From positions 39,675 to 103,674 of the forward strand of contig JAIOAW010000003.1 in NCBI GenBank assembly GCA_019873625.1: a DNA stretch of 64,000 bases, in the 5' to 3' direction. The position numbers and the translations under genes were made by a program. A model generated the notes under the pieces. That model made no database searches and was not told the DNA's origin. It saw only the letters and a program-made list of their open reading frames with translations. Below, piece after piece: positions 4,143 through 46,034 of this stretch; position 1 is the first letter of the stretch, and each line of letters starts with the position of its first letter. The stretch comes from Chloroflexota bacterium. GTDB lineage: Bacteria; Chloroflexota; Anaerolineae; UBA1429.

Positions 4143-4167
4143 CCCCGCCCGATTCGCAAAAAATAAA

Positions 4168-4194
4168 AGCGCCCCCGCATATTACGGGGGCGCT
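4168..4194. terminator. Bidirectional intrinsic terminator between two convergent genes.
   Basis: The stem is agcgcccccg-catatta-cgggggcgct. An A-run lies upstream and a T-rich run downstream. It sits between the isomerase (+) stop and the glycyl radical enzyme (-) stop. Confidence 0.75.
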
Positions 4195-4207
4195 TTGCTT
4201 ATAAACG

Positions 4208-6460
4208 TTACTCTTCCGCCAGGATGCGATCCACAATGGGCTGGCGGTATTCGCGCGAGAGGGTGCGGAAGTAGGCGCTGTAGCCCGTGACGCGGATCAT
4301 CAAATCGGGGTGGGTCATTGGGTTTTCGTGGGCCTCCAGCACCTGCTCTTTGGAGACAACGTTCATATTGATGAGCGTGCCGCCCTGCTGGTTGTGCGTG
4401 AGGATGAGCGACTCGATGGCCTCTATCCCGCCCAGGCTCTCGATGAGTTTGCGATCGAACTCGATTTGGAGGGGCGTCGTATTCCCATAGCCGGATTGCA
4501 CCGAGGCCACGGCGTTGGCCTTGGCCGTGATGGCGATGCCGCCGTTCGGCACAAAACCGGGGTCGGGGTCCGCGCTGTGGGAGATGGGTTCGCCGGCGTG
4601 GCGGCCGTTGGGCGTGGCGCCCACCGTCTCGCCCCAGCGGTTCGTGGCGCCGTGCGAAAAGAGGCCCGGCACGCAACGGAAGCCCTTGGGCGTGGGCGTA
4701 TCCCACACGAGGTGCGTCCACAAATCAGCAATGCGGCGCGCCCATTCATCCGCCTTGGTGCCGCCGCGCCCATAGCGCGGGATGCTGTTGAGCATCAAGC
4801 GGACGGGTTCGGCGCCGGCGAAATCCGTATCGAGATAGTGTTTGAGTTCATCCCACGTCAGGCGTTTTTCCTCCACCACGCGCTGTTCGATGGCCGCGAA
4901 AGAATCCGCCGCGGTGGCCAGGCCGATGCCGTCCATAGCCAAGTCCACGATATCCACCCCGCCGGCGGAGACGTCCACCCCCCGCTCGATGGGGCCGTGG
5001 CAAAAGAGGTTCAGGACGATCTCCGGCCAGTTGCGCGCCTGGCGCTCCATATGGATATCTTTGCCCACTTTGACGATATCCACCGAGGTTTTGAGGTGGA
5101 AGGTATAGCGCGCCCACAGGGCCTCCATAGTGCGGGGGGCCTGCGGATCATTCATAATATCCTCCAGGGCGAGGAGGAGGGGCGTCACCAAGCAGACGCG
5201 CGTGACATCCTGCAAGCAGTATTCGATGCCGGGCAGGGCCGTCCAGTTGCAACCGACCTTGGCGCGCATCCGGGCTAGGCCCAGCGGGAACCCCTGCCGC
5301 ATAAAGCCCTCGTCCAGCCCTTTGGAGAGGGCGAACGAAACCCCCGTGCCATCTTGATAGATGTATTCGATGGCCCTGCGCAACAGGCGGCGATCCATCC
5401 CCTCATAGACGCGCAGGGCGATGTTAGAGGGGATGCGCAGTTTGTGCATCGCATCGAGGATGATGAACGAGACGTCGCTCGTGAGGTCGGTGCCATCGGG
5501 CGCTTGGCCGCCGATTTGCGAATAGTGCGGATCGTTGAAAAAGAGGCTGGCCACATGCCACACGCAGGAATCGTAGGTCTCGAGGCCGGCCGCTACGTCG
5601 CGCTCGTAATAAGGGCGCAGGAGTTCGTCCAACTGGCCGAGCGCCCCGCCCAAGGCCCACATCCGGTCAATGCACTGGAACCAGGCCAGGAATTGGCAGG
5701 CCTCGCGGAAGGTGCGCGGCGGGTTCTCGATGAGCCACTCGTTCGTCTCGGCGATGGCGAGGAGGTTCTCTTTGAGGACGGGGTGCGTCTCTTGGGCGGC
5801 CATCTCACGGGCCTTTTCTACGTGGCGGCGAATCCAGGTTTGAACGCCCAAGACGAGGTCCTCTTCGCCATCGTAAAATGAGGTGTCTACGGGGTGGTTC
5901 AGGGCACGGTATTTGCGGATCTTGTTCAAAATCCCGCCCCAGCCGAGTTCCAAGCCGATGCTCATATCTGGCCCGATGTGGTTGGGCGACCCGATGCCCG
6001 GCGAGTAGATATTGTATTTGCGGTGGAGCGGGATGAGGTGAAGCGGCCGATCCTCCGGCCGCCAACTCCGAAAATGCTCGTCCTCCTCGCCCTTGCCGGC
6101 CACGGGTTTGGAATTGGCGCGCATACTCTCCAGCCGCCAGCCGCCCACGCCGGGAATGCCCTTGTAGATCCAGGCGCCGGCGAGGGAACTCATCGGGTTG
6201 ATGTAAACGGGGTGCACCTCCAGCCAGCGGCGAAAGTTCTGGCCGATGGCCCGAATGCCCCACACGCCCCCGGAGGGGTGACTGGGGATGGGTTCGAAGG
6301 GGATTTCCTCATCCCAGGGGATGTAGCCGTGATCGTCCGTATCAAAGTAGCCGAAGCGCTGGACTTTGATATCCGTATGGGCGTTTTTCACCTCTCGCAG
6401 CGCCGCGATGCGTTCATCATAGGTCAGTTCGCCGATTTCGAGTGCACTTTGGGTCGTCAT
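4208..6460 (-). CDS. Pyruvate-formate-lyase-like glycyl radical enzyme (divergent).
   Basis: 750 aa. The C-terminal glycyl-radical motif is MIRVTGYSAYFRTL, about 30 aa from the end. A TPDGR-like motif ATPNGRHAGEP and a single-Cys loop VGCNW are present. A ribosome-binding site AAGAGG precedes the ATG. Confidence 0.75.
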   Translation of the reverse strand: MTTQSALEIGELTYDERIAALREVKNAHTDIKVQRFGYFDTDDHGYIPWDEEIPFEPIPSHPSGGVWGIRAIGQNFRRWLEVHPVYINPMSSLAGAWIYKGIPGVGGWRLESMRANSKPVAGKGEEDEHFRSWRPEDRPLHLIPLHRKYNIYSPGIGSPNHIGPDMSIGLELGWGGILNKIRKYRALNHPVDTSFYDGEEDLVLGVQTWIRRHVEKAREMAAQETHPVLKENLLAIAETNEWLIENPPRTFREACQFLAWFQCIDRMWALGGALGQLDELLRPYYERDVAAGLETYDSCVWHVASLFFNDPHYSQIGGQAPDGTDLTSDVSFIILDAMHKLRIPSNIALRVYEGMDRRLLRRAIEYIYQDGTGVSFALSKGLDEGFMRQGFPLGLARMRAKVGCNWTALPGIEYCLQDVTRVCLVTPLLLALEDIMNDPQAPRTMEALWARYTFHLKTSVDIVKVGKDIHMERQARNWPEIVLNLFCHGPIERGVDVSAGGVDIVDLAMDGIGLATAADSFAAIEQRVVEEKRLTWDELKHYLDTDFAGAEPVRLMLNSIPRYGRGGTKADEWARRIADLWTHLVWDTPTPKGFRCVPGLFSHGATNRWGETVGATPNGRHAGEPISHSADPDPGFVPNGGIAITAKANAVASVQSGYGNTTPLQIEFDRKLIESLGGIEAIESLILTHNQQGGTLINMNVVSKEQVLEAHENPMTHPDLMIRVTGYSAYFRTLSREYRQPIVDRILAEE

Positions 6461-6505
6461 ACCTCTTGCCTTTCGATGCGTGAAAACGCGGATACCTCGC
6501 CGCGC

Positions 6506-6534
6506 ATCATATCCCCAAGCGAGCGCTGTGTCAA
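6506..6534 (-). promoter_or_regulatory. Sigma70-type promoter for the glycyl radical enzyme gene.
   Basis: On the minus strand it reads TTGACA-17 nt-TATGAT, about 45 nt upstream of the ATG. It lies in the 100-bp gap after the murQ stop. Confidence 0.6.
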
Positions 6535-8474: not shown

Positions 8475-9575
8475 CTACGGCGTGATGACGGCCTTCACAG
8501 ATTCTTGCCGTTCCGTGGCGATGAGCGCCTCGTTGACCTCATCGAGCGTAAAGCGCGGCCGCACGAGTTTGCTCAGGGCCTCGGGCGAGAGTTTGCGCAG
8601 GAGCGCCAACCCCCGCAGGAAGTGGCTGTTATCGGCCGACCAGGCGCCGGTGATGGTAACCTGCTTGCGGTTAATGAGATGCGGGTTCAAAGGCACCGTG
8701 CCGGCATCGCCATAATGCCCGGCGATGACGTAGCGCCCGTTGATGCGCACCATCTCCAGGCCCTCGGCCACCGCCGAGGGCACGCCGGTCGCCTCTAGCA
8801 CCACATCGGCCCCACGGCCGCCCGTCATTTCCAAGACCCGCGCGATGCGCTCGGGCGCCTTGGCCTGGAAGATGTCAATCACGGCATCAGCGCCCAGTTC
8901 GCGCACTAGGTCAAGCCGGGGGGCAGGGCCGCCCACCACGATGACTTGGCTGGCCCCCGCGTCTTTGGCGAGGAGCGCCCCCATCACGCCCACCGCACCC
9001 GACCCCTGTACGACGACGGCATCCCCATAATCCAGGCCGCCGATGCGGTCGAGCGCGTGCACCATCACGCGCAAGGCGTCTCCTAACACCACGGCCTCCG
9101 GCGCCACATCGTTCACCACCACAATGTCGCTCCCCGGCAGGAGCCAGACGTACTCGGCAAACCCGCCCACGAGGTAGGGGTGTTCCCAAGCGGGGATCCA
9201 ACCGCCATAGCCCAGGCGCCGTTCGCATTTGGAGGGGTCTTTGAGGATGGTGCAGTTGTAGCACTGCATACAGGATTTCGGCAGCCAAGTGATGAGGTCG
9301 CCCACCTGGATGGGTTTGCCCGTAATATCGCGCAGGGGCTTTTCGCCGCCGATCTCCTCGACGCGGGCCACGTTCTCATGCCCCAAAATGGCTGGCACTT
9401 GGATGGGCACCTGGCCGCGGAGGATGTGCACGTCGGTGCCGCACACGCCGGCCATCACCATACGGGCGAGGATGGCCCCTTCTGTAAGCGGGGGAATCTC
9501 GACTTCTTCGATTCGAAACGGCCGCTCTTGGGGCGGCCGAATTTCGCGCAGCATAGCCACTCGCGCTGTTCTCAT
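8475..9575 (-). CDS. Zinc-dependent alcohol/polyol dehydrogenase (medium-chain dehydrogenase family).
   Basis: The catalytic-zinc motif GHENVARVEEIG and the structural-zinc cysteines CMQCYNC are present. A Rossmann motif VVVQGSGAVGVMGALLAKDAGA is present. Confidence 0.85.
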   Translation of the reverse strand: MRTARVAMLREIRPPQERPFRIEEVEIPPLTEGAILARMVMAGVCGTDVHILRGQVPIQVPAILGHENVARVEEIGGEKPLRDITGKPIQVGDLITWLPKSCMQCYNCTILKDPSKCERRLGYGGWIPAWEHPYLVGGFAEYVWLLPGSDIVVVNDVAPEAVVLGDALRVMVHALDRIGGLDYGDAVVVQGSGAVGVMGALLAKDAGASQVIVVGGPAPRLDLVRELGADAVIDIFQAKAPERIARVLEMTGGRGADVVLEATGVPSAVAEGLEMVRINGRYVIAGHYGDAGTVPLNPHLINRKQVTITGAWSADNSHFLRGLALLRKLSPEALSKLVRPRFTLDEVNEALIATERQESVKAVITP

Positions 9576-9618
9576 CGTATCATCCTTTTCGACAGGTTTG
9601 GAGGGTTCGGCGGCGCTC

Positions 9619-10029
9619 CTAGGGCATCACGCCGAAACGATCCCAATCGGTCAAATCGGCCTCGGGCGCGGTAAGGAGCCACACCTGGCAAAAAGAGAGG
9701 ACCCGACAGCCCTCTTCTAGGTGGCCGCCCATCGTCAGGTTGAGGCCCGAAAAACTGATGTGCGCATGGACGCGCCCATTCATAATGACGCCGTTCATCG
9801 AGAGGATGTCAAGCGGCTCCTCGCCCTTCAGAAAGGCGTCTTTGGGGGGCAGGTTGGGCGTCTCGACCACGTGAACGTGGTAATGCGTGACGGACCCTAT
9901 GGCCCCTAGGATGAGGGCGTGCTTGATTTGATGCTGGGCCACGGCCTCGCGGATGGCGAGGAGGATATCCTCGCCGGAGTTGATGCGGATGACGATAATC
10001 TCGCCCACTCGACTGCGTTGGGTTTTCAT
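9619..10029 (-). CDS. PPC (DUF296) domain protein.
   Basis: 136 aa. The pattern GEDILLAIREAV...HALILGAIGSVTHYHVHV...LSMNGVIMNG...AHISFS is typical of PPC/DUF296. Confidence 0.5.
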   Translation of the reverse strand: MKTQRSRVGEIIVIRINSGEDILLAIREAVAQHQIKHALILGAIGSVTHYHVHVVETPNLPPKDAFLKGEEPLDILSMNGVIMNGRVHAHISFSGLNLTMGGHLEEGCRVLSFCQVWLLTAPEADLTDWDRFGVMP

Positions 10030-10054
10030 AGTTCGGCCTTTCTTGGGGGGATAA

Positions 10055-10954
10055 TCAACCCTGGGCCTTTAGGTCCACGCCGGTGGCCTCGGTGTAAAGT
10101 TCGCAGATGCCGATGGAATCCAGGTCTCCCTTGCCCAAGCCCAGGGCTTGGGTGTACAGTTGGTAAATAAGCGCCGTAACGAACACGGGCACCCCTTGTG
10201 CTTTGGCGAAATCCACGGCCAGGCCCACGTCTTTATGCATAAGCGACAGTTTGAAGCCGGGCTTGAGATCCCCCTTCAAAATGCTCGCGGCCACCTTTTC
10301 TTCCAGAATCCAACTGCGCGCCGTGGCGCCGGAAAGGATCCTGTGCACGAGGCCCGTATCAATCCCCGCCTTTTTGGCGATGGTGAGTGCCTCGGCGATG
10401 GCCACGGCCTCTGCCGCCACGATGAGGTTATTCCCCAGTTTGACGACGAGTGCCGACCCGTTCGGCCCAACGTAGGTGATGCTCTTGCCCACGGCCTCGA
10501 GCACGGGTTTGACCTTGTGGAAGGCTTCCTCTGGCCCGCCCACCATAATGGCCAGCGTGCCGGCGATAGCGCCCGTCTGCCCGCCGCTCAGGGGGGCATC
10601 GAGGAGGGTCATCCCCTTTTGGGCGGCGGCCTTGGCTAGGCGCTGTGAGGTGAGGGGGGAGATGGTGCTCGTATCTACGATGATGAGGCCCTCGCGCCCA
10701 CCCGCTAGCACGCCGTCTGGCCCCAAGACGATCTCTTCGACCACGGCGTCATTGGGCAGGCAGAGCATCACCACTTCCGTTTGGGCGGCGACTTCGGCGG
10801 GCGTATTCACCTTTTGAGCGCCGGCCGCGATGAGGCGCTCCACGGGGGCCGGGTTGCGGTGCCCCATAATGACGACCTCGAACCCCGCCTTGAGCAAATT
10901 GGCGGCCATCGGCTCGCCCATCGTGCCGACTCCGATGAACCCTATACGCTTCAT
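10055..10954 (-). CDS. NAD(P)-dependent 3-hydroxyisobutyrate / tartronate-semialdehyde-reductase-like oxidoreductase.
   Basis: The N-terminal Rossmann motif is MKRIGFIGVGTMGEPMAANL. Length is 299 aa, typical of beta-hydroxyacid dehydrogenases. The ribosome-binding site is AAGGAGGG. Confidence 0.8.
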   Translation of the reverse strand: MKRIGFIGVGTMGEPMAANLLKAGFEVVIMGHRNPAPVERLIAAGAQKVNTPAEVAAQTEVVMLCLPNDAVVEEIVLGPDGVLAGGREGLIIVDTSTISPLTSQRLAKAAAQKGMTLLDAPLSGGQTGAIAGTLAIMVGGPEEAFHKVKPVLEAVGKSITYVGPNGSALVVKLGNNLIVAAEAVAIAEALTIAKKAGIDTGLVHRILSGATARSWILEEKVAASILKGDLKPGFKLSLMHKDVGLAVDFAKAQGVPVFVTALIYQLYTQALGLGKGDLDSIGICELYTEATGVDLKAQG

Positions 10955-10975
10955 ATGGATTCCCTCCTTTTTCTT

Positions 10976-12058
10976 TTATGGTGCCATCGTGGCCGGGGGC
11001 GCCACCCCAAGGCCCTCGCCGATGCGGCAGATTTCCTGATAGACGGGGGCCTCAAAGGGGATGCCCTCCACCTCATAGCGCGCCTGGCAGCGCCGCTCCA
11101 GTTCGCCGGGCATCAAGATTTCTTCCACGCCGGCCTGCCGGGGGATGGCCTTGATTTCGGCCACCAGGGTATCCATCCGCTCCAAGAAGGCCTCTTTCGG
11201 CCCGAAGGCAGAGACGTCAAGCGCGCCGAACGAATGGCCCACGTTCTGCCCCCGGTGAAAGTCTCCGTACAGAGCGCCCAGGTGCGGGCCGAAATCGGCG
11301 CCCGAAAGGAGGGCGCTCAGAATCTCCACCATCAATGCGAGGCCGTACCCCTTGTGCCCGCCCACGGGGAGCATCATCCCGCTCAGGGCGGCTTGCACAT
11401 CGGTGGTGGGGTTGCCGTCGGCGTCGAGCGCCCAGCCAGGGGGGATGGTCTTACGGCCTTCTTTGGCCATCAGGAGGATCTTGCCCTTGGCGACGACGCT
11501 GGTGGCCATATCGAGCAAGATCGGCCCATAGGAGCCGCTTGGCACGGCCAGGGCGAGGGGATTCGTGCCCAGGTACGGTTTGCGCCCGCCCCAAGGGGGC
11601 ATATTCGGCGGGGCGTTCGTGGTGGTGAAGCCGATCATCCCGGCCTCCACCGCCTGATGCAGGAAGAAGGCCGCCGCGCCATAGTGGCTGCTATGACGCA
11701 CGGCCACGAAACTCACGCCGTGCTCCTCGGCCAGGCGAACGGCCACGCCCATAGCGTAATGCCCCACCACTTGGCCGGGGCCGTTGTCGCCATCCACCAA
11801 GGCCGTGCCGCCGCGTTGGGCTGCGATGTGCACGTTCGGGCAGGGGTTCATCGCCCCGCTCTGCAAGCGCTTGACATAAATATCAAGCAAGCGCGAGACG
11901 CCGTGGCTCCCCTGGCCGCGCAGTTCCGCCTGCACCAAGGAATCGGCCATAATGGCGGCGTGTTCCGCGCTCACGCCCAGGGCCTGGAACACCTCGCGCG
12001 TGAAACGGCGCAAATCCTCCGCCAAGAGGCGATACTCTTCGGAAGAGGGCGCTGTCAT
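10976..12058 (-). CDS. Ldh2-family malate / L-lactate / sulfolactate-type dehydrogenase.
   Basis: The segment AELRGQGSHGVSRL and the Ldh_2 fold pattern are present. The likely start is the ATG at 12058 preceded by AAAGGAG. The earlier GTG start would overlap the upstream gene. Confidence 0.75.
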   Translation of the reverse strand: MTAPSSEEYRLLAEDLRRFTREVFQALGVSAEHAAIMADSLVQAELRGQGSHGVSRLLDIYVKRLQSGAMNPCPNVHIAAQRGGTALVDGDNGPGQVVGHYAMGVAVRLAEEHGVSFVAVRHSSHYGAAAFFLHQAVEAGMIGFTTTNAPPNMPPWGGRKPYLGTNPLALAVPSGSYGPILLDMATSVVAKGKILLMAKEGRKTIPPGWALDADGNPTTDVQAALSGMMLPVGGHKGYGLALMVEILSALLSGADFGPHLGALYGDFHRGQNVGHSFGALDVSAFGPKEAFLERMDTLVAEIKAIPRQAGVEEILMPGELERRCQARYEVEGIPFEAPVYQEICRIGEGLGVAPPATMAP

Positions 12059-12059
12059 A

Positions 12060-12800
12060 TCACTCCTTTTCACCGAGGGATGGGTCTTTTTCTAGCGGTT
12101 TGACCGTCTCATCTTCGGGGAGGCCGGCCTTTTTGTACAAGGCCCGCCGAGCGGCTCGATCCCCTTCCGCGACGACGCGCGCCCATTGGGCCACCTCCTC
12201 GGCGATTTCGATGGGCACCACGACGACGCCGTCGCCATCGGCCACTACGACGTCGCCGGGGCGCACCTGAACTCCCCCGCAGGTGATGGTGCGCTGCTCG
12301 CTTTCCCATTCCAAGCGGAAGGGGCGAATCGTCTTTTCGATGTGGTGGCTATACACGGGCACGCGCTGGCGAATGAGTTCGTCCGTATCGCGGCAGCCGC
12401 CGTTTGTTACAATGCCCACGGCCCCGCTCAGAATCCACGAAAAACCGTTGTTCGAGCCGATGTACCCGACGTGCACATCCGTCCCATCAATGACGATGAC
12501 GTCTCCCTCCTCGATGGGCATTTTGGGGCCGGGCGCGAGTTCGCGGTACCAGCGAGAGATTGCCTCGCGGTTTTCTTCAGGGGTGCCGTTGAGGATGGGT
12601 TTATTCGTGGGCACAAAGCGCACGGTGTGAGCAAACCCCACAAAACAGTGGGCAAAGGTCTCGACATCCCGCCACAAGGGGCGAATGTTATAATCCATAT
12701 TCCCGCGATCTTGCCGCCCGAGGATGTCCATCGCATCCGAGACGTCCGTCACGCGCAGGCCCCGGTAAAGGGCCATCAGCCGTTTTCTCGTTTCGTCCAT
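12060..12800 (-). CDS. RraA-family protein (aldolase / decarboxylase-like), paralog 1.
   Basis: The RraA/HMG-CHA-aldolase fold pattern is GDVIVIDG...GYIGSNNGF...GAVGIVTNGGCRDTDEL. It is a paralog of the gene at 23954-24676. Confidence 0.7.
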   Translation of the reverse strand: MDETRKRLMALYRGLRVTDVSDAMDILGRQDRGNMDYNIRPLWRDVETFAHCFVGFAHTVRFVPTNKPILNGTPEENREAISRWYRELAPGPKMPIEEGDVIVIDGTDVHVGYIGSNNGFSWILSGAVGIVTNGGCRDTDELIRQRVPVYSHHIEKTIRPFRLEWESEQRTITCGGVQVRPGDVVVADGDGVVVVPIEIAEEVAQWARVVAEGDRAARRALYKKAGLPEDETVKPLEKDPSLGEKE

Positions 12801-12812
12801 AAGCGGCCTCCA

Positions 12813-13481
12813 TTAGAGCGTGATGCCGCTATCGGTGAGCGCCTTGCGAAAGCCCAAGATGTCGAGCGTCAACTCGCCTCGCTCAAGGCGCTGCATCACC
12901 ACGGCCTCGTTGGCCTCTCGGGCACGGGCCTTTTCCAGCACCTGGGCGAGTTTCGCTTGGGGCACCACCACGACGCCGTCGTCATCCCCCAAGATGAGGT
13001 CGCCCGGATGCACCGTGACGCCCCCCACCACCACGGGGTGGTTGATCCAGCCCAAGGTCTTTTTCACCGTGGCGCGCATACAGATGGCCGACGACCAGAT
13101 GGGGAACCCCCGCTTGACGATGACCTCTCGATCTCGGATGCCCCCGGCGATGACCAGGCCCGCCACGCCGCGCGCTATGGCCGCCACTGTGGTGATCTCG
13201 CCCCAATAGCCGGCATCCTTCAGGTCGCCGACATCGGCCACGATGACATCGCCCGGCTGGGCAAGGGCGATGGCCGTGTGGAGCATGAGGTTATCGGCTG
13301 GGAAGCAGCGCACGGTAATCGCCGTGCCGCAGACGTGCTGGCCCCAGGCGATGGGCCGGATGGTGTGATCCATCGCGCCGGATTGGTCGTTCGCCTCGTA
13401 CACGGTGGCCGCCCCTAGGGCGGCGTAGGCCTCTACGATTTCTCGGGGGATGCGGGGAACGTCTCGGATGATGCGATCCAT
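12813..13481 (-). CDS. RraA-family protein, paralog 2.
   Basis: The pattern is GDVIVADVG...GYWGEITT...GVAGLVIAGGIRDREVI. The ribosome-binding site is AGGAGAG. Confidence 0.7.
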   Translation of the reverse strand: MDRIIRDVPRIPREIVEAYAALGAATVYEANDQSGAMDHTIRPIAWGQHVCGTAITVRCFPADNLMLHTAIALAQPGDVIVADVGDLKDAGYWGEITTVAAIARGVAGLVIAGGIRDREVIVKRGFPIWSSAICMRATVKKTLGWINHPVVVGGVTVHPGDLILGDDDGVVVVPQAKLAQVLEKARAREANEAVVMQRLERGELTLDILGFRKALTDSGITL

Positions 13482-13490
13482 AATTCTCTC

Positions 13491-14501
13491 CTAATAGCGT
13501 TTGATGTTCGCGACCTGATCCATCAGGTCGCGGCGGTTCGCCCGAAAGGCCTCCAGGTTGCCCAGGAGGCAATCCATCACGGCCGTTTGGTAATCCGGCC
13601 GGCCGCCCGAACAGTGCGGCGTGATGAGGACGTTGGGGAGGTCCCACAAAGGGCTATCGGCGGCGAGGGGTTCCACCTCGAAGGTATCGAGGGCAGCGCC
13701 CGCGATGCGACCCGCCTGCAAGGCCCGGATGAGGTCGCGCTCGACGATCAGCCCGCCGCGCGAGGGGTTGATGATAAAGGCGGTGGGCTTCATCCGCGCC
13801 AGGCGTTCGGCGTGGATCATCCCGCGTGTGGCCTCCACGAGGGCCGTGGTGCAGATCACGTAATCGGCGCGCGGCAAGAGGGCGTCGAGATGCTGGAGGG
13901 TGTACGTCTCGTCGAAATACTCGACGGGGCGGCCGTCGCTATTGACCCCGAGGGTGCGCATATGAAAGGCCAGTTTGAGTTTGCGGCCCGTCTCGGCGCC
14001 CACGTGCCCCGTGCCGATGATGAGCGCCGTTTTGCCCTCCAAGAGGATGTTGGAAAGGCGCTCTTCATCGTGGTAGATGTGCGCCTTTTGCCGTTCGGCA
14101 TAGCGCTTCAAATTCTTCGAGAGCGCCAACATCGCCGCTAGGATCCATTCCGAGATGGGCACGGCGTGGATTTTGGCCGTGGTTACGACGATTTGCCGGG
14201 ATTCGAGGAGATCCCAAGGCGTCCAGAATTCGCCCGAATTCACGCCCGCGCCGGGGTGGTGCACCCATCGCAGGTTGGGCAGGGCCTCGAGAAGGCGCGC
14301 TGTCACGTGAAACGAAGGCGTTACCAGGATGCGCACCTCGGTGCGCAAGGCCTCGGGCAGGGCATAGACGTTCGCGTGAAAGAGATCGGACGGCGCCGTG
14401 TGGGGGTCTCCGCCTGGCTCGACGTAGGTGTACGTGCAGCCGGCCGCCTCCAAACGGGCGATATCTTCTGGCCCGAACCGTTGGGTTGAGAGGACGCGCA
14501 T
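13491..14501 (-). CDS. D-isomer-specific 2-hydroxyacid dehydrogenase.
   Basis: The NAD-binding motif GKTALIIGTGHVGAE is present. Catalytic residues R..E..H are in the segment PHCSGGRP. The start is ATG (MRVLST) preceded by AAGGAG. Confidence 0.8.
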   Translation of the reverse strand: MRVLSTQRFGPEDIARLEAAGCTYTYVEPGGDPHTAPSDLFHANVYALPEALRTEVRILVTPSFHVTARLLEALPNLRWVHHPGAGVNSGEFWTPWDLLESRQIVVTTAKIHAVPISEWILAAMLALSKNLKRYAERQKAHIYHDEERLSNILLEGKTALIIGTGHVGAETGRKLKLAFHMRTLGVNSDGRPVEYFDETYTLQHLDALLPRADYVICTTALVEATRGMIHAERLARMKPTAFIINPSRGGLIVERDLIRALQAGRIAGAALDTFEVEPLAADSPLWDLPNVLITPHCSGGRPDYQTAVMDCLLGNLEAFRANRRDLMDQVANIKRY

Positions 14502-14526
14502 CGGGATTCGCTCCTTCGGTCGAAAA

Positions 14527-17043
14527 TCATTCCTCCAAGGCGAGGGAAAGGCGTTCCCCGTCAAGGGTCGAGATGGTCAACTGCCCGCCGCTGGGTTCCC
14601 CCTCCAGCGCGGATATCCATACCTCTTTGGGGGCAAGGAGCGTCAGGGTAAAGTCATTATCGCCATAGAGGAGGCGGCGGTCGGATTCGATTTCGACGAG
14701 CATCGTCGGCGCAGAGGCTTTGAGGGTCAACCGCCAGGCGCTCGGGCCGGCCGGTTCGAGGGCGGCCTGGAGGCCGGCCTTTTCTTCGCGGAACTCGGCC
14801 AAAGGGCAAAAGAGGAGGCGATCCTCGGCGAGCACCTTCCCCTCGACCACGAATTGGGCATAGGCGAACTCGCGTGTGCGATCTATGACGCGCGGATAAA
14901 AGTCGGCCACGTCGAACAGGCGTACGCTCTCGCCCCGTTCCAGGGTGGCCGGGATCTCCCAATAGCGGCGCACCTGACCCTGGGCATCCAGGTGCCATAG
15001 GCGCAGCGTGCCCTGGAGCGGACGGGCACCGGCATTGGCGCCGACCACCCGCAGGGCCTCAATATCTCGATAGAGGTGGATGGCCGCATCGGCAAAGAGG
15101 CGCCGCAGGGCGTAATAGGCCATCAGCGGCCGCTGGCCGTAGTCAATGCAGCCGAACCCAAAGAGCGGCCCGCCCTTGTTCAGCGGCCAATAGAGGATGC
15201 CCTTGCAGGAAGGGCTGCGAAATCGCAAATACGCAAGGGCTTGATAATCCGCCTCGAGTTGCTCGATTTCGAGGGCGCGCAGATAACCGCGCAGGCTGGA
15301 AACATCATAATAATGTGTGAAAGGGAACTTGGTAAAGAGCGAAAGGCCGGTGCGCTCCTTCCAACGGTGGTGCCAGCCCTTTGAGGCAAAGGCCTCCACG
15401 TCGAGGGCCATAGATTCTCGCAGCGTCTCCGGGCGCGAGTAACTATCGTAAATCCAGCACGTCTCGGTGACAAAGAGGGGGTCTTTTGTGGCGTTGTAAT
15501 AGTTGCCCCAGGTATGGGTATCCCCTACCGTGGGAGATTGCCCGCCGATGCCCCCGTGCGGCGAGTTGGGGATGTAGGGGATGTGAGGGGCCTCCTCCTG
15601 GCAAACGCGCGGCAGGAGATTATGGATAAGCCGTTCGCCATAAAAGCGATCCATTTCGGCCTTCCAGTTCCACTCATCCCAACCCTGTTGCTGTTCGTTC
15701 CCGCCGCAGAGGAGGCTCAAACAGGCGTGGCGGCGCATCTTGCGGATGAGGTCGCGCGCCTCGGCCTCCGCCTCGGCCATAAAGAGGGGGTCATCATCGG
15801 GGTAGGTGCCGCTATGGTACAAGAAATCTTGCCAGACCATCACCCCCGCCTCATCGCAGAGGTCGAGAAACTCCTCGTCTTCCGGCACGCCGCCGCCCCA
15901 AAGGCGGATCATATTCATATGCGCGAGGAGCGCTAGGCGCACGATGCGGCGGTATGCCTCGGAGGTGCCCCGTCCCTTGATGGCATCGAGGGGCATCAGG
16001 TTGCCGCCGCGCGCATAAACCTCTTGGCCGTTCACGCGGAATTGAAAGATGGGCCGCCCATTGGGGAGGGATGTAACGAGTTCCACCGTCTTGATGCCGA
16101 TGCGCCGCTCCAGGGTGTGGATAACCCCCTCCCTCGACGAGAGGGTTGCGCGAAGGCGGTACAAATGGGGTTCGCCGTAGCCGGCGGGCCACCACAACCG
16201 CGCCTGGGGGAGGGTGAGCGTGGCCTCAAGGCGCTCCCTCGCTACGGGGAGGCACATTTCGGCTGCCGGTTCCTCTCGGCCAGCCTCGTACAGGGCGACT
16301 GAGCAGGTGAGGGGGGCTGGCTTGCCTTTGGCCCCTTGGACCTCAAGGCCCAGCCGCACGGTCGCACGGCCATCCTCGTGAAGGGCCTCGGTGATGGCAT
16401 AGGCATCGGTGATATAGGCCAATGGGTAAAAGCACAGCCGCACCGGGCCGGGGATGCCGATGCCGATGACGTTCTCGCCGAGGTTCAAGAGGCTTGTATT
16501 GTAACTGCGCTGGTAGCGGCGGATGAGGGCGCGTTCCTGATGCGCCGTGGGGTTGCTGGAGACCGCGATGCGCTCAACATCCGGGTACTGTTGCGAGACG
16601 ATGCGGCGGTGCGCTTTGACCTGCACCAAAAGGGTATTTTCGCCGGGGCGCAACGGCCCTTGCCCGAGCGGAAAGGCATAGGGGCGGAACATATTGCCCG
16701 CCCTGCCAACCAAGGCGCCATTCAGCCACACCTGGGCAAAAGTATCTATGCTCTCGAACTCGAGTGCGGCCTGCGGCAGCCCCGCAGGCGGCGCCTCACA
16801 GGTGAAGCGGCAACGATAGAGCCAATCGCCCTGGGGCACCCAGGCCGCCTTGGCCGCCGCCTCCCGGCTGGCCAAGGGGTTCTCTAGCCTCCCGGCCGCC
16901 ATCAGATCGTACTGCACGGCCCCCGGCACCGAGGCCGGGATCCAATCCAGGCCGTCGAGCGCCGGAGGCTCTGCGCCATCATAGGGGGGCAGGGCAGCGA
17001 CTTCCCAGCCCCTTGCGAGAGGGAAGCAATATTCTTGGGGCAT
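14527..17043 (-). CDS. Glycoside hydrolase family 2, beta-mannosidase-like.
   Basis: The GH2 catalytic TIM-barrel segment is NMIRLWGGGVPEDEEFLDLCDEAGVMVWQDF. Length is about 838 aa. The ribosome-binding site GAGGTG precedes the ATG at 17043. Confidence 0.7.
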   Translation of the reverse strand: MPQEYCFPLARGWEVAALPPYDGAEPPALDGLDWIPASVPGAVQYDLMAAGRLENPLASREAAAKAAWVPQGDWLYRCRFTCEAPPAGLPQAALEFESIDTFAQVWLNGALVGRAGNMFRPYAFPLGQGPLRPGENTLLVQVKAHRRIVSQQYPDVERIAVSSNPTAHQERALIRRYQRSYNTSLLNLGENVIGIGIPGPVRLCFYPLAYITDAYAITEALHEDGRATVRLGLEVQGAKGKPAPLTCSVALYEAGREEPAAEMCLPVARERLEATLTLPQARLWWPAGYGEPHLYRLRATLSSREGVIHTLERRIGIKTVELVTSLPNGRPIFQFRVNGQEVYARGGNLMPLDAIKGRGTSEAYRRIVRLALLAHMNMIRLWGGGVPEDEEFLDLCDEAGVMVWQDFLYHSGTYPDDDPLFMAEAEAEARDLIRKMRRHACLSLLCGGNEQQQGWDEWNWKAEMDRFYGERLIHNLLPRVCQEEAPHIPYIPNSPHGGIGGQSPTVGDTHTWGNYYNATKDPLFVTETCWIYDSYSRPETLRESMALDVEAFASKGWHHRWKERTGLSLFTKFPFTHYYDVSSLRGYLRALEIEQLEADYQALAYLRFRSPSCKGILYWPLNKGGPLFGFGCIDYGQRPLMAYYALRRLFADAAIHLYRDIEALRVVGANAGARPLQGTLRLWHLDAQGQVRRYWEIPATLERGESVRLFDVADFYPRVIDRTREFAYAQFVVEGKVLAEDRLLFCPLAEFREEKAGLQAALEPAGPSAWRLTLKASAPTMLVEIESDRRLLYGDNDFTLTLLAPKEVWISALEGEPSGGQLTISTLDGERLSLALEE

Positions 17044-17127
17044 AACACCTCGTGCCAAAAGGACGGTATCTGGCCAGCCCTAAGGCGCCTCCAGGGCCTT
17101 TTTTTATGAACTCGCCGGCCCGCAGGT

Positions 17128-17574
17128 TCACTGCTGGATGGGCACGGCCCCCGCTTTTTTGTAATCGAACCCCTCGGGCCACTTGGTGGTGGCGGGGCGG
17201 TAGCGCGTGCCGAGCAGGTTTGCGCCCTCCAAGTTGGCGCCTGTAAGGTCGGCCTTATCGAGGTTGGCAAAGCGCATATCGGCCCCTCGGAGGTCGGCGT
17301 TCGTCAGGTTCGCGCCGGTCATATCGGCGTAGCACAAGATGGCGCCCTGAAGGTTCGTGTTTGTAAAGTTGACCCCCCTTAGGAAGGCGCGGGTCAGGTC
17401 GGCCTTGCTGAAATCGGCGTTGCTCAAGTCGAGGTTGTTCAGTTTGTACTGGTAAAGATACAAGCCCGAGCACTTGGGCGGGCACCCCTCCGGCAGTTTC
17501 TGCGTACCACAGCCCACCAGCGCGATGGTGAAGAGGAGAACTCCCACAAGGATAAGGATGCTCTTGCGCGTCAT
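17128..17574 (-). CDS. Pentapeptide-repeat lipoprotein.
   Basis: A signal peptide with lipobox LVGC is followed by about 16 tandem A(D/N)LxG pentapeptide repeats (NLDLSNADFSKADLTRAFLRGVNFTNTNLQGA...). Confidence 0.8.
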   Translation of the reverse strand: MTRKSILILVGVLLFTIALVGCGTQKLPEGCPPKCSGLYLYQYKLNNLDLSNADFSKADLTRAFLRGVNFTNTNLQGAILCYADMTGANLTNADLRGADMRFANLDKADLTGANLEGANLLGTRYRPATTKWPEGFDYKKAGAVPIQQ

Positions 17575-17704
17575 AGCTCACCTCCCTGGCTGCATCAACC
17601 CGTGCTCTGCGATGAATATCTCAAGCGCCGGTTCTATCCTATGGCAGACCTCCCGAGGCGTCAACTCGCCTTATGCCTCGCGCGCGGAAGGCGCACTTCA
17701 AGGC

Positions 17705-19489
17705 CTAGCACTGGGGGCCTTTCGCGGGCTCCGCCGTGCGCACGAGTTTCAAGGCCCAATCGTCGTCATCGGGCTTGGGGGGTAGGGCGATTTCCCCATC
17801 GGCATTGGCCCTCAGGGTAAAAGGCTCTCCCCAAGCGCCGGTGCGCGGGTCAAACCAGCGCGCCGTGTACTCGCCCAGGTGCGCGGCGCCCCGCAGGCGC
17901 ACGGCGGGGCATTCCGCCTCAAAATAGACCATAAACAGGTCTCGTTCGGGCGTGCGCGCGCAATAGGCCCAGCCCACGTTCCCTTCGAGTTGATGCGTCC
18001 GGTTGGGCTCGACGAGGTCGGCGATGGGCACGAGATCCTGAAAGCGCGGCCCTTCGGACCATACGAAATCGTAAAAGTAGCGCATTTGCGTGCCAGAAGG
18101 CCACTGGAGGCTCTCCCACATCTGGTACGGCGCCTCCGGTTCGATATCGCCGCCCCACAGGCCGCCGGCGCCGTAGATGTGCCCGGCCAGCCCGCCCGAA
18201 AGAAAACTCCCGTACGCCCCCGAACGGCAGTAGCGCGCCGTCTCCGCCGTGCCGGGGATGACGCCCGGCGGCCAGCCCACGTCATAGGGGCTGCTCAACG
18301 CGTCATAATACGGTTCGCCGTTGAGGGCTGGCTTGGGCGGCTTGGATTCGAAAAAGATCTCGGTCAACAACCAGTGGCTGTTGTGGTGCCGCCGGTTGCC
18401 GATTTGGTGCAAGGTCAACCAAGGGGCCTCGTCGGAGTTGCCAAAGTTATTTAGGCTGGAGCCGGCCGCGTTGCACGAAAGGAGCGTGCCAAAGGCCGGC
18501 ACGCCTTTGGCCACCACGGCGTTGGCCGCCGCGTTGAACGCCCGCGAAGGGAGGGTGGCGTGGCCGTAGTCGAAATGGATGGGGCTGAGGATGACGTTAT
18601 TCGCCTGGTAACGCGCAAAGACGTACTCTACATAGCGGGCGTAGGAATCCGGCCAGCCATAGTACTTGGCCCAGACGGCCATACCGTCTCGTCGGGCGGC
18701 CTCGATGAAGGGGATGAACCCCTGGGCGTTCAGGTAATCCACCTTGCGATCCATATATTGAAAGTAGGCCGGGTTGATGCGGTTCACATCGGGGTAGACG
18801 TGTTCATAGCCCGGCACCTTGCCAGGGAAGAGGAAAGGACGGCCGCCCTCGTTATGCATATCCTTGGCGCTTTGAGTGCCAGCCTGGCGCCAGGCGGAGC
18901 GCAAAAAGGTGCCATCGGTCAGTTCGATGCGGTGGGGATGGCCGTCATTAGCCCAATTGGGGAAGGCCGCAATCATCGCGATGCAGTTGTACCCCTGGGC
19001 CTTGCGGTAGCGCACCATATCTTTGAAGCCCATCTCCGGGCCGATGGGGCGTTCGAGATCGTCGTCATCCCAGCGAAAGCGATGGGTGGGCACGGCCCAC
19101 CAGGTATCGCCGAGCAGAAAGCAGGGCGTGCCATCGGCGTATTCCAGGGCGTGGCCGCTCGGCGTGGGGCGCAGGAATCCACGCCGGCAGGGATTCGCGG
19201 CGAGTTCCTCCTCGCTCCAAGGGATGGCCTCAAAGCGCCCCGATTGACCACTGAGGCCCGGGTCCTCCGTGTTCGAGCCGCTCTCCCAATGCCATTCGCC
19301 GGGAGAGGTGGCCACCAGCCGCACGCGGAAGGTTCGGCCACCATCCCAAAAGCCATACACGCGCCGTTCAAAGCCAGGTCCTTTGAGGTTTACCCACACC
19401 TCGACCTCGGTGTAGGGGTTATCGTAATTTCCCTCGGCGTTCAGGGTGATTTCGACCTTCTCCCAAGGGTGGAATAGCCCAGAAGACAT
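17705..19489 (-). CDS. DUF5060/DUF4038-type putative glycoside hydrolase (GH140-like).
   Basis: The N-terminal beta-sandwich reads FHPWEKVEITLNAEGNYDNPYTEVEVWVNL...RVYGFWDGGRTFRVR, followed by a TIM-barrel-like body. The start is the ATG at 19489 preceded by AAGGAGG. The assignment rests on domain-pattern memory only. Confidence 0.4.
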   Translation of the reverse strand: MSSGLFHPWEKVEITLNAEGNYDNPYTEVEVWVNLKGPGFERRVYGFWDGGRTFRVRLVATSPGEWHWESGSNTEDPGLSGQSGRFEAIPWSEEELAANPCRRGFLRPTPSGHALEYADGTPCFLLGDTWWAVPTHRFRWDDDDLERPIGPEMGFKDMVRYRKAQGYNCIAMIAAFPNWANDGHPHRIELTDGTFLRSAWRQAGTQSAKDMHNEGGRPFLFPGKVPGYEHVYPDVNRINPAYFQYMDRKVDYLNAQGFIPFIEAARRDGMAVWAKYYGWPDSYARYVEYVFARYQANNVILSPIHFDYGHATLPSRAFNAAANAVVAKGVPAFGTLLSCNAAGSSLNNFGNSDEAPWLTLHQIGNRRHHNSHWLLTEIFFESKPPKPALNGEPYYDALSSPYDVGWPPGVIPGTAETARYCRSGAYGSFLSGGLAGHIYGAGGLWGGDIEPEAPYQMWESLQWPSGTQMRYFYDFVWSEGPRFQDLVPIADLVEPNRTHQLEGNVGWAYCARTPERDLFMVYFEAECPAVRLRGAAHLGEYTARWFDPRTGAWGEPFTLRANADGEIALPPKPDDDDWALKLVRTAEPAKGPQC

Positions 19490-19503
19490 AGGGTGATCCT
19501 CCT

Positions 19504-20304
19504 TCACGTGGCGAGCCATCCGCCATCCACCACCAAGACGTGCCCATTGACAAAGTTCGAAGCCTCCGAGGCTAAAAACACGATGGGGCCGAACAAGTCA
19601 TCCAACTCGCCGATGCGCTTCATCGCGATGCGGCTCAGCACCCAATCCATCGTCTTGGGGTCATCGAGCACGGGCGCGGACATCGCCGTGCGCGTGAAGA
19701 CGGGCGCCAGCGCGTTCACGTTGATGCCCCGTGGCCCCCACTCGATGGCCATCGAATGGGTCAACTGGTTCACCGCTCCTTTGCTCGGGGCATAGGCCGC
19801 GTCATGCAGGCGCCCCTGGAAGGCGCGCACGGAGGAGATATTGATGATCTTCCCCTTACCCTGTTTGAGCATCACGCGGGCCACGTGCTTGCAGCACAAA
19901 AAGACCGATTTGACATTTACGTCCATCACGCGTTCCCAGGCCGCCGTATCGAATTCCTCGATGGGCTGGAGGTGCACCACGCCTTGGCTATTCACCAAGA
20001 TGTCAATACGGCCAAAGGTGTCGAGCATATAGTGCACCATCGCCTCTACCTGGGCCTCGTCCGTCACATCGGCGGCGAAAAAGGCGCCCCGGCGCCCCAG
20101 GCTTTGGATGGCCTTGGCCGTCTCTTCCAGGCCGGCCGGCCCTCGGCTCGCCACGCAGACGTCGGCCCCGGCGGCGGCCAGGGCGAGCGCCATCGCTTGG
20201 CCCAAGCCCTTCGTCCCGCCCACCACGAGCGCCACTTTGCCATCGAGGCGAAAGCGGTCCAAAGTCGAAGGGGCAAGCGCAAGGATCTTTTCCAAATCGG
20301 ACAT
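19504..20304 (-). CDS. Short-chain dehydrogenase/reductase (KduD/gluconate-5-dehydrogenase-like).
   Basis: The cofactor-binding motif is GKVALVVGGTKGLGQAMALALAAAGADV. The catalytic SxnY-xxxK triad and the typical PG motif are present. Confidence 0.85.
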   Translation of the reverse strand: MSDLEKILALAPSTLDRFRLDGKVALVVGGTKGLGQAMALALAAAGADVCVASRGPAGLEETAKAIQSLGRRGAFFAADVTDEAQVEAMVHYMLDTFGRIDILVNSQGVVHLQPIEEFDTAAWERVMDVNVKSVFLCCKHVARVMLKQGKGKIINISSVRAFQGRLHDAAYAPSKGAVNQLTHSMAIEWGPRGINVNALAPVFTRTAMSAPVLDDPKTMDWVLSRIAMKRIGELDDLFGPIVFLASEASNFVNGHVLVVDGGWLAT

Positions 20305-30709: not shown

Positions 30710-30841
30710 TCCATCCTCCCATATGACGCAATCTGCGCATAGTCTTATACATCATAACGCAGAAAGCACAGAAGGGCAAACTATCGCGTGCTGAGGCGTT
30801 GCCTCAGCGCACCATCGGGGGAGTGGAGACTGTGAGGCATC

Positions 30842-38370: not shown

Positions 38371-38372
38371 CC

Positions 38373-45962: not shown

Positions 45963-46034
45963 CGGACACCTCCTATCGGTGATGAGTCAAAGAGCGCCCC
46001 TCTTTTATATTCCATTTTGCCCGCCTAGGCAAAG

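Follow-up and report, generated by a model that had tools for sequence, protein, structure and literature searches.

A glycyl radical enzyme with a CxW / Thr-Gly signature and no activase gene within 64 kb in a Chloroflexota bacterium

Does a gene that resembles those of the pyruvate formate-lyase (PFL) family, and that lies apart from any recognisable activase gene, encode a radical enzyme with a new substrate class or a protein that has left radical chemistry behind? This question is raised by a 64-kb stretch of DNA (hereafter the window; 64,000 nucleotides of contig JAIOAW010000003.1) from a Chloroflexota bacterium of the class Anaerolineae, in which a 750-amino-acid (aa) protein similar to glycyl radical enzymes (GREs) is encoded beside murQ and a murK-like kinase gene. 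An earlier note on this DNA, made from the sequence alone, had placed the two possibilities side by side. In this study, the gene, its relatives and its flanking DNA were investigated using profile and structure comparison and searches of protein and genome collections. We consider it likely that the gene product is a functional GRE from a deep and so far uncharacterised branch, with Trp at the second position past the catalytic Cys and Thr before the radical Gly as its marks (CxW / Thr-Gly), that its activase is encoded elsewhere, and that the gene is transcribed on its own and is not functionally tied to the murQ and kinase genes.

Domains, predicted fold and active-site loops of the protein

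Both the sequence and the predicted fold show a full-length GRE. The two Pfam profiles against which an alignment had been proposed both matched it, PFL-like (PF02901) over residues 158-604 (3e-81; 274 bits against a cut-off of 24) and Gly_radical (PF01228) over residues 644-731 (9.5e-13; 49 bits against a cut-off of 22), so that the protein has the PFL-like barrel domain and the C-terminal glycine-radical domain of the superfamily. The AlphaFold2 model formed a full barrel (pLDDT 89.9, pTM 0.92), and Foldseek aligned it with 50 solved GRE chains at TM scores of 0.72-0.82 (E values down to 1.9e-37; 18-22 % identity), which at the fold level agrees with a ten-stranded alpha/beta barrel with two finger loops. 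Every motif quoted in the earlier note for a PFL-family C-terminus and active site was found in the sequence, namely IRVTGYSAYF, whose Gly726 lies 24 aa before the C-terminus, RTLSREYRQPIVDRI, ATPNGRHAGEP (residues 615-625) and VGCNW, which contains Cys404. The RVTGY region is homologous to the glycine-radical domain, as Gly726 was aligned with Gly763 of glycerol dehydratase (1r8w) and lies within the span of the Gly_radical match.

Relatives of the protein are numerous. A search of 5.8 billion proteins returned 1,611 matches at E <= 0.001; the best 120 were 60-97 % identical and 626-808 aa long (most 715-760), and those with names carry only the annotations 'pyruvate formate lyase (family protein)' or 'formate C-acetyltransferase'. 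A genomic scan with one genome per GTDB species gave 220 relatives, and the best 80 of these 220, to which all locus counts below refer, are all from uncultured metagenome-assembled genomes (MAGs). The bacterial hosts are Anaerolineae and other Chloroflexota, Thermoflexales, Spirochaetaceae, Latescibacterota, Poribacteria, Gemmatimonadota, Armatimonadota, Clostridiales and Halanaerobiaceae, and the archaeal host is one Methanoperedens MAG. In all, the family counts several hundred sequences or more at 56-97 % identity, and uncultured bacteria and archaea are the only sources so far. About 150 columns are invariant in an alignment of 79 family sequences, including R723, T725, G726, C404, N405 and W406; Y727 and S728 of the Gly loop are invariant as well and V724 is nearly so, and C-N-W is kept in 90 of 90 relatives at 58 % identity or more. 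The wider CxW-type clade occurs in sediments, digesters, groundwater and sponges and is abundant in uncultured glycan-degrading phyla. A literature search found no paper that describes or characterises the CxW / Thr-Gly branch, and entire GRE clades lack experimental validation according to a 2026 review.

Two residues set the active-site loops apart. The PROSITE glycine-radical pattern PS00850 reads [STIV]-x-R-[IVT]-[CSA]-G-Y-x-[GACV] and is not matched by M-I-R-V-T-G-Y-S-A of the protein, in which Thr725 stands at the [CSA] position, as had been noticed earlier. The Cys loop reads G-C-N-W with a single Cys, and its description as having neither a Cys-Cys pair nor the Glu of a CxE motif was likewise accurate. 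When the protein was searched against 1.84 billion cluster representatives (50 %-identity clusters), about a dozen full-length clusters were found at 38-63 % identity (500-1040 bits), followed by a drop to 32 % or less. Among representatives in which both loops were aligned, Thr precedes the Gly in 25 of the 27 with Trp at Cys+2 and in 4 of the 47 with Glu at this position (Fisher's exact p = 2e-13); because the test is uncorrected for shared ancestry, the pairing describes a clade-level signature rather than independent events. The window protein carries both marks, W406 and T725. Hence the Thr-Gly pair and the missing Glu, which had been listed as atypical features, are both real, but they are linked hallmarks of a whole branch and not independent oddities of one gene. 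The Cys+1 residue varies in the Trp group (N, H, Q, F, P or G), which suggests that one common scaffold has diversified in function. In all GREs, the centre of the barrel is where the Gly and Cys loops meet, and Thr725 and Trp406 may be in contact.

Comparison with characterised enzymes placed the protein near, and outside, the known dehydratases. The family profile matched solved structures in the order glycerol dehydratase (6.6e-66), propanediol dehydratase, PflD (1.6e-61), CutC and HypD; lower matches were MASS (2.6e-32), BSS (2e-31), HPAD (1e-26) and PFL (1e-20). In the alignment to 1r8w, VGCNWTALPG was paired with IGC433VE435PQKPG and RVTGYS with RVAG763YSA. Cys433, Gly763, His164 (the proposed acid), Tyr339 and Asp447 of 1r8w are kept as Cys404, Gly726, His161, Tyr313 and Asp418; Glu435, the general base, is replaced by Trp406, and His281 and Ser282 are replaced by Gly272 and Ala273. 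Glycerol dehydratase and 1,2-propanediol dehydratase (5i2a/5i2g) therefore share with the protein the best profile match, TM scores of 0.80-0.82 and loops in register, but they differ in overall sequence (20-22 % identity), in these replaced residues, in having Ala and not Thr before the Gly, and in their setting, as no microcompartment or aldehyde-processing operon accompanies the window gene. CxE is kept in every characterised 1,2-eliminase and isomerase, formate lyases have Cys-Cys, and the CxE Glu was found essential by mutagenesis in CutC and IslA (2026 review).

These data bear on the view that the gene is a divergent orthologue of a known enzyme, either PFL or an eliminase of the glycerol/propanediol dehydratase type. 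The database annotations of the relatives, the rank of the two dehydratases as best structural and profile neighbours and the retained equivalents of His164, Tyr339 and Asp447 speak for it, but we regard it as extremely unlikely. The Cys-Cys pair is missing and the true-PFL equivalog TIGR01255 gave 57.8 bits against its cut-off of 994; the CxE Glu, so widely conserved and essential where mutated, is absent; and identity to any solved GRE does not exceed 18-22 %. Each NCBIfam equivalog model stayed below 20 % of its own cut-off, the best model, the generic TIGR01774, reached about a third of its cut-off (228 of 678 bits), and none of the curated subfamily models, all far below cut-off, claims the protein. 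'Pyruvate formate-lyase' is therefore a mis-annotation for CxW genes.

Judged by its sequence features, the protein fits none of the seven recognised GRE classes. The radical Gly in RVxG[YFW] and the catalytic Cys are present, with G726 and C404 invariant in the 79 members. The single Cys and the low TIGR01255 score separate it from formate lyases, and Trp406 opposite Glu435 separates it from CxE eliminases and isomerases. X-succinate synthases are distant (BSS, MASS), and the intergenic gaps of 65 and 102 bp are too small for subunit open reading frames (ORFs); no conserved ORF of at least 90 aa besides the activase was found in the 80 loci, shorter ORFs at other loci not being screened. Aminoacyl radical enzymes (AAREs, 2024) are similar in being a recent, functionally unassigned, metagenome-derived PFL-like branch with an unusual radical loop, but in these the radical Gly is replaced by Ala, Ser or Thr, whereas the window protein retains Gly726 and has Thr before it. 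The suggestion of a GRE with a new substrate class is thus supported by the full-length GRE sequence and predicted fold, the uncharacterised branch and a C-N-W loop that matches no recognised class.

Activase linkage and copies without a linked activase

No activase was detected in the window. Two family activases used as tblastn queries gave a best E value of 0.026, for a 17-aa ferredoxin-like stretch, and Pfam annotation of about 40 window ORFs yielded no Radical_SAM domain and no second PFL-like gene. A six-frame scan found CxxxCxxC in two ORFs only, which encode a phosphofructokinase and an aldo-keto reductase-ferredoxin fusion (Table 1), the latter being one of two paralogous fusions of this kind in the window. 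The claim that no CxxxCxxC activase is encoded in the window stands as far as the activase is concerned, but the motif itself does occur, in these two non-activases.

In the family as a whole, the GRE gene has an activase gene as its immediate neighbour in 43 of 80 loci, downstream in the subclade of about 750 aa and upstream in that of about 720 aa, and de novo clustering of all ORFs in the 80 loci left the GRE and its activase as the sole conserved module. The activase has about 300 aa, a Radical_SAM domain with CxxxCxxC and two ferredoxin-like (Fer4) inserts; ferredoxin-insert activases are common to non-PFL GREs, and the family activase is of this type. Proteins of both kinds are also joined in nature. 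P0255, the 1052-aa representative of a sister cluster, shows 38-40 % identity, has the motifs GCNWF and RVTGFS, and carries an N-terminal activase (about 300 aa, HDGPGIRTT...CALRCPWC) fused to the GRE; three proteins of 1052-1054 aa, from JGI, Logan and ENA, make up its cluster at 90 % identity. To our knowledge, activase-GRE fusions are unusual. On this Rosetta-stone evidence, CxW-type GREs depend on an activase. The fusion could also ease the problem of in-vitro activation that is stressed by the 2026 review.

A single activase lineage with 67-88 % mutual identity was found in four settings. It lies downstream of GREs of the family; it stands between two paralogues, one CNW and one CHW GRE (L011, L012, L015 and L018); it is placed upstream of a C-V-E GRE that is unrelated (L175); and it occurs as an orphan, with glmS and a nucleotidyltransferase/HEPN-like pair at its sides in L095 and within sugar-utilisation surroundings in L177. 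One activase lineage thus appears to serve very different GREs. In the second setting, the order CNW-GRE, activase, CHW-GRE spans 354-5892 of L011, 4270-9745 of L012, 122-5601 of L015 and 10001-15469 of L018; the paralogues are 45-46 % identical, with RVTGY in one and RVTGF in the other around one activase, and recall the YbiW/PflD pair for epimeric substrates. In L175 (10001-13135), the activase is 75-81 % identical to CNW-family activases and stands upstream of a GRE of 26 % identity with the Cys loop STCVEITP and the Gly loop RIGGYSDYF, and a GH140-like gene, a cupin gene and a TIM-barrel gene lie nearby. A second GRE type with its own more distant activase (42-47 % identity) was observed at L040, L045 and L014, where CRY[VI]NSTCV stands opposite the family Cys loop in BLAST alignments and the Gly loop is RIGGY[TA]DYF; the MAGs behind these three loci encode several different uncharacterised GREs.

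Copies without a linked activase form coherent subclades in a neighbour-joining tree, in which the window GRE groups with L013 and L064 and this group is sister to the activase-linked L016. Activase-less loci were counted where at least 2.5 kb of flank was present on both sides (22 loci) and were compared with 36 activase-linked loci. RVTGYS is found in 36 of 36 linked and 22 of 22 activase-less loci, GCNWT is kept in all 22 of the latter, and the mean pairwise identities (overall, Gly domain and Cys loop) are slightly higher among activase-less than among activase-linked loci. Both kinds of copy are interleaved in one family at 60-75 % identity. The ratio of nonsynonymous to synonymous substitution (dN/dS) was calculated from codon alignments, in which the more distant comparisons approach synonymous saturation. 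It was 0.031 between the window and its 97 % relative (L008; dS = 0.52), 0.09 for the 85 % relative (L091), 0.10 for the 81 % relative (L093) and 0.20 for L013. The ratio of 0.03-0.10 among the closer relatives indicates long-term purifying selection within the activase-less lineage.

A non-radical pseudo-enzyme, in which the GRE scaffold would have an activase-independent, oxygen-tolerant role, catalytic or structural, and the Gly and Cys would be kept for structure only, is suggested by the absence of an activase in 64 kb, within 10 kb in the 97 % relative and in whatever flanking DNA was visible for the 85 % and 81 % relatives (the contig of the 85 % relative ends 95 bp past the GRE gene), by entire subclades without a linked activase and by the typically aerobic nature of some host phyla. 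It is nevertheless unlikely. Linked and unlinked copies are interleaved and identical in both loops, and these are the sites that a change of mechanism should mark; orphan activases of the same lineage exist; an activase-linked copy (L040) and an activase-less one (L088) occur together in one MAG, JACPJE01 of Latescibacterota; nrdD/nrdG of the class III (strictly anaerobic) ribonucleotide reductase, a sign of anaerobic capacity, lie 5 kb from the 85 % relative; and activation in trans has an experimental precedent in TdcE. With the activase in 43 of 80 loci, the fusion in the sister cluster and loops unchanged under strong purifying selection, the pseudo-enzyme proposed in the earlier note was not supported.

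The lack of an activase in the window would also fit a recently orphaned relic, in which the activase was lost and the GRE can no longer be activated although its frame is intact, and the transposase fragments that flank the gene in the 81 % relative suggest a mobile or rearranging locus. A relic is, however, decidedly unlikely given a dN/dS of 0.03 over a dS of 0.52 to L008 and of 0.09-0.10 to the 85 % and 81 % relatives, together with a conserved promoter and terminator. The absence of a nearby activase had been counted among the atypical features; it holds for the 64 kb, but separation from the activase is common in the family and has the TdcE precedent.

We infer that the window GRE is radical-dependent and is activated in trans. 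Its activase is most likely an unlinked gene elsewhere in the genome, because linked relatives, orphan activases, a MAG with both kinds of copy, conserved activase-less copies and the TdcE precedent all occur. In Escherichia coli, no activase gene belongs to tdcE itself, and PflA activates GrcA as well. TdcE is a precedent for the activation in trans proposed here: PFL-AE, the activase from another GRE locus with a matching Gly-loop sequence, activates it (2026 review). The likeness ends there: TdcE is a true formate lyase with Cys-Cys, GrcA is a 127-aa spare part, and both are unrelated in function and clade.

Transcription unit and surroundings of the gene

The promoter that had been ascribed to the gene was upheld. 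Within 6.4 kb, 2 promoter-like sites of the same quality were found against 1.1 expected by chance; in the 97 % relative (L008, L010), this site reads TTGACA-17-TATTAT, with both hexamers and the spacing kept. Downstream, a terminator-like hairpin begins 12 nt past the stop codon, and its stem GCCCCCG...CGGGGGC is kept in L008; with the GRE gene on one side and the convergent TIM-barrel gene on the other, it may work in both directions. Because the hexamers, the spacing and the terminator stem are kept while the surrounding intergenic DNA has diverged, the GRE gene looks like an independent monocistronic unit that runs from its own promoter to its own terminator. The terminator scan detected none between murQ and the GRE gene, so that read-through from murQ may occur. 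Rfam and tRNA scans of the window returned nothing, and hence no riboswitch in the 5' untranslated region of the gene.

As had been stated, the GRE gene lies directly downstream of murQ and the kinase gene and is co-oriented with them. The MurQ assignment is solid (NF003915, 417 bits against a cut-off of 168), and the murK-like kinase adjoining it was refined to a BadF/BadG-type sugar kinase by Pfam and NCBIfam. The mechanical MurQ ORF of 464 aa starts too early, from a TTG, and runs into the kinase gene; in contig L007, which is identical, gene calls give a MurQ of about 309 aa, whose start overlaps the kinase stop by 4 bp, suggesting translational coupling of the two.

A joint role of the GRE, MurQ and the kinase in the recycling of cell-wall sugars, such as D-lactate or lactyl-ether chemistry of MurNAc-6-phosphate or an anhydro-muramic derivative, would fit this arrangement, its synteny in the 97 % relative, the lack of a terminator between murQ and the GRE gene and the precedent of YbiW and PflD as GREs that cleave sugar ether bonds. 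We hold it to be very improbable. Homologues of MurQ and of the kinase were found in the flanks of 0 of 80 family loci each by tblastn and phmmer. The adjacency is kept in the 97 % relative only: the neighbour in the 85 % relative is a GFO/IDH/MocA oxidoreductase gene, and the gene of the 81 % relative has transposase fragments and not murQ at its sides. The GRE gene also has its own conserved promoter, and YbiW and PflD use CxE, which the window GRE does not have. The adjacency is probably incidental and irrelevant to GRE function, and the relevance of the MurQ reaction, which the earlier note had left open, was not borne out, the adjacency being gone already at 85 % identity.

The window is otherwise a glycan-utilisation region with GH2, a GH140 apiosidase-like gene and two sugar ABC systems, as well as genes for a xylose-isomerase-like TIM barrel, an RraA-like protein and Ldh_2, 2-hydroxyacid and Zn-dependent dehydrogenases; farther along, selB and housekeeping genes follow. 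The features with coordinates are collected in Table 1.

Table 1 Features of the GRE gene and of its surroundings in the window
Feature	Position	Strand	Basis or remark
GRE coding sequence (CxW / Thr-Gly branch), 750 aa	4208..6460	-	ORF list, Pfam, AlphaFold2 model, Foldseek, dN/dS
Gly loop R723-V-T-G726-Y-S728; Gly726 codon 4283-4285, predicted radical site	4277..4294	-	Sequence read-out and alignment to 1r8w
Cys loop V402-G-C404-N-W406-T-A-L-P-G411; Cys404 codon 5249-5251, predicted thiyl-radical residue	5228..5257	-	Profile alignment to 1r8w
Intrinsic-terminator-like hairpin, 14-bp stem with 9 G-C pairs, then T-run	4166..4196	-	Terminator scan
Shine-Dalgarno-like AAGAGG, one base before ATG	6462..6467	-	Sequence read-out; GAGAG kept in L008
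Sigma-70-type promoter-like site TTGACA-17 nt-TATGAT	6506..6534	-	11/12 consensus matches; in the 102-bp gap between murQ stop and GRE start
MurQ, about 309 aa	6563..7492	-	Gene calls in identical contig L007
Mechanical MurQ ORF, 464 aa	6563..7957	-	Over-extended
Co-directional array, Zn-ADH to GH140	8475..19519	-
Two RraA-like genes within the array	about 12.1-13.4 kb		Assigned by L008, not by direct window annotation
Aldo-keto reductase with C-terminal 4Fe-4S dicluster ferredoxin domain, two paralogous fusions	28329..29420 and 44799..45962	-
ORF with CxxxCxxC, phosphofructokinase	29510..30751		Six-frame scan
ORF with CxxxCxxC, aldo-keto reductase-ferredoxin fusion	44802..45986		Six-frame scan
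SelB, selenocysteine-specific elongation factor	38373..40268	+	Within 37138..40268
ORF of 854 aa	31529..34093	-	Gene-like codon position bias; no Pfam family at E <= 1e-5
ORF of 429 aa	52302..53591	+	Gene-like codon position bias; no Pfam family at E <= 1e-5
ORF of 214 aa	59206..59850	+	Gene-like codon position bias; no Pfam family at E <= 1e-5

The co-directional array comprises Zn-ADH, PCC/DUF296, an NAD_binding_2 dehydrogenase, Ldh_2, a D-2-hydroxyacid dehydrogenase, GH2, a 148-aa ORF and the GH140 apiosidase-like gene (DUF5060 and Apiosidase domains). Its part from Zn-ADH to GH2 is syntenic in the 97 % relative, and the array resembles a pathway, so far undescribed, that would handle a branched or acidic sugar released from plant or algal glycans. 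Ahead of SelB lies a 410-aa ORF without a Pfam match at E <= 1e-5, and the tRNA scan of the window found no tRNA-Sec and no other tRNA.

Proposed chemistry and meaning of the branch

If the GRE is functional, as we consider likely, a radical-SAM activase of about 300 aa with two ferredoxin inserts, encoded elsewhere alone or beside another GRE, would take a hydrogen atom from Gly726 under anoxia; this step is shown for relatives by linkage and by the fusion protein and is predicted for this genome. By homology and aligned positions, the glycyl radical would pass to Cys404 as a thiyl radical, which would then abstract a hydrogen atom from the substrate. In known eliminases and isomerases, the CxE Glu deprotonates the substrate hydroxyl; in the window GRE, an invariant Trp would stand at its place, and Gly272 at that of His281 of glycerol dehydratase. 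Because this Glu is replaced by an invariant Trp, the reaction is probably not a canonical Glu-assisted ketyl elimination. Our best guess, which is speculative, is a radical C-O or C-C cleavage or a rearrangement of a glycan-derived small molecule such as a sugar, polyol or sugar acid, in which Trp406 might serve as an aromatic platform or radical shield and His161 and Asp418 as an acid/base pair.

One analogy is provided by YbiW and PflD (8id7, 8id0, 8yjo), the C-O lyases of 1,5-anhydroglucitol-6-P and 1,5-anhydromannitol-6-P, or GRE sugar isomerases. They are the only known GREs that act on sugars, and the setting of the window is one of sugar catabolism; PflD is the third-best profile match among solved structures, with NF007437 among the top NCBIfam matches; and YbiW and PflD are paralogues for epimers, as CNW and CHW paralogues occur here with one activase. 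Unlike the window GRE with its C-N-W, however, YbiW and PflD, at about 20 % identity, keep CxE (Glu443, Glu433) and bind the substrate C2-OH with it, and the window GRE family has no conserved sugar-phosphate aldolase partner.

A glycan-derived small molecule as the substrate is weakly inferred from the glycan-utilisation setting of the window and from the genes around the family loci, which encode a URO-D-like protein (12/80), a GFO/IDH/MocA oxidoreductase (11/80), SDR (10/80), a sugar ABC permease (9/80), Zn-ADH or an enolase-superfamily protein (8/80 each) and a sulfatase or a HAD phosphatase (5/80 each). An MFS transporter gene lies directly downstream of the GRE gene in L013. When neighbours from the window and its relatives were searched by phmmer in the 80 loci, GH140 was found in 0 and the TIM barrel in 1. 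The co-occurrence of GH140 and TIM-barrel genes in L175 was considered as a substrate clue and rejected, as the GRE of L175 is of the unrelated C-V-E type and the pattern is not recurrent.

Several points weigh against a functional GRE activated in trans and against the roles proposed for its residues. No activase was found for this organism, of which 64 kb were visible; a metagenome scan with the activase profile gave, among the matches listed, none from samples that hold this organism, and the closest activases, when looked up, came from other samples. The orphan activase L095 and that of L016 are sisters, which parallels the GRE tree, but this hint of co-phylogeny is weak, as activases of the L095 lineage also partner an unrelated GRE. 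The roles of H161, D418 and W406 come from an alignment at about 22 % identity and not from coordinates. No neighbour besides the activase occurs in more than 15 % of loci, so that the substrate class is a loose association. Poribacteria, Gemmatimonadota and Armatimonadota are usually deemed aerobes, which is awkward for an oxygen-labile enzyme.

Taking the family as a whole, a tentative idea, which we would not favour over its negation, is that the CxW / Thr-Gly GREs form an eighth functional class whose radical chemistry, carried out without a Glu base, would act on compounds derived from glycans in uncultured degraders of polysaccharides (Anaerolineae, Latescibacterota, Poribacteria, Spirochaetes). 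In such a class, the Cys+1 residue (N, H, Q, F, P or G) might tune the substrate or the reaction, and a shared, often unlinked activase might serve several GRE types per genome.

For genome annotation, a GRE gene without a nearby activase should not be equated with the loss of radical function. Over the past decade, every GRE clade to be newly characterised has brought to light a new anaerobic reaction (for example choline, hydroxyproline, isethionate or anhydro-sugar cleavage), and a two-residue signature, C-x-W with T-G, now makes the present clade recognisable; Trp in place of an otherwise universal catalytic Glu suggests a different chemistry. Together, the signature, the cognate activases and the natural fusion make heterologous activation and the screening of substrates directly accessible, and the CxW GRE is a useful lead for enzyme discovery rather than a surprise.

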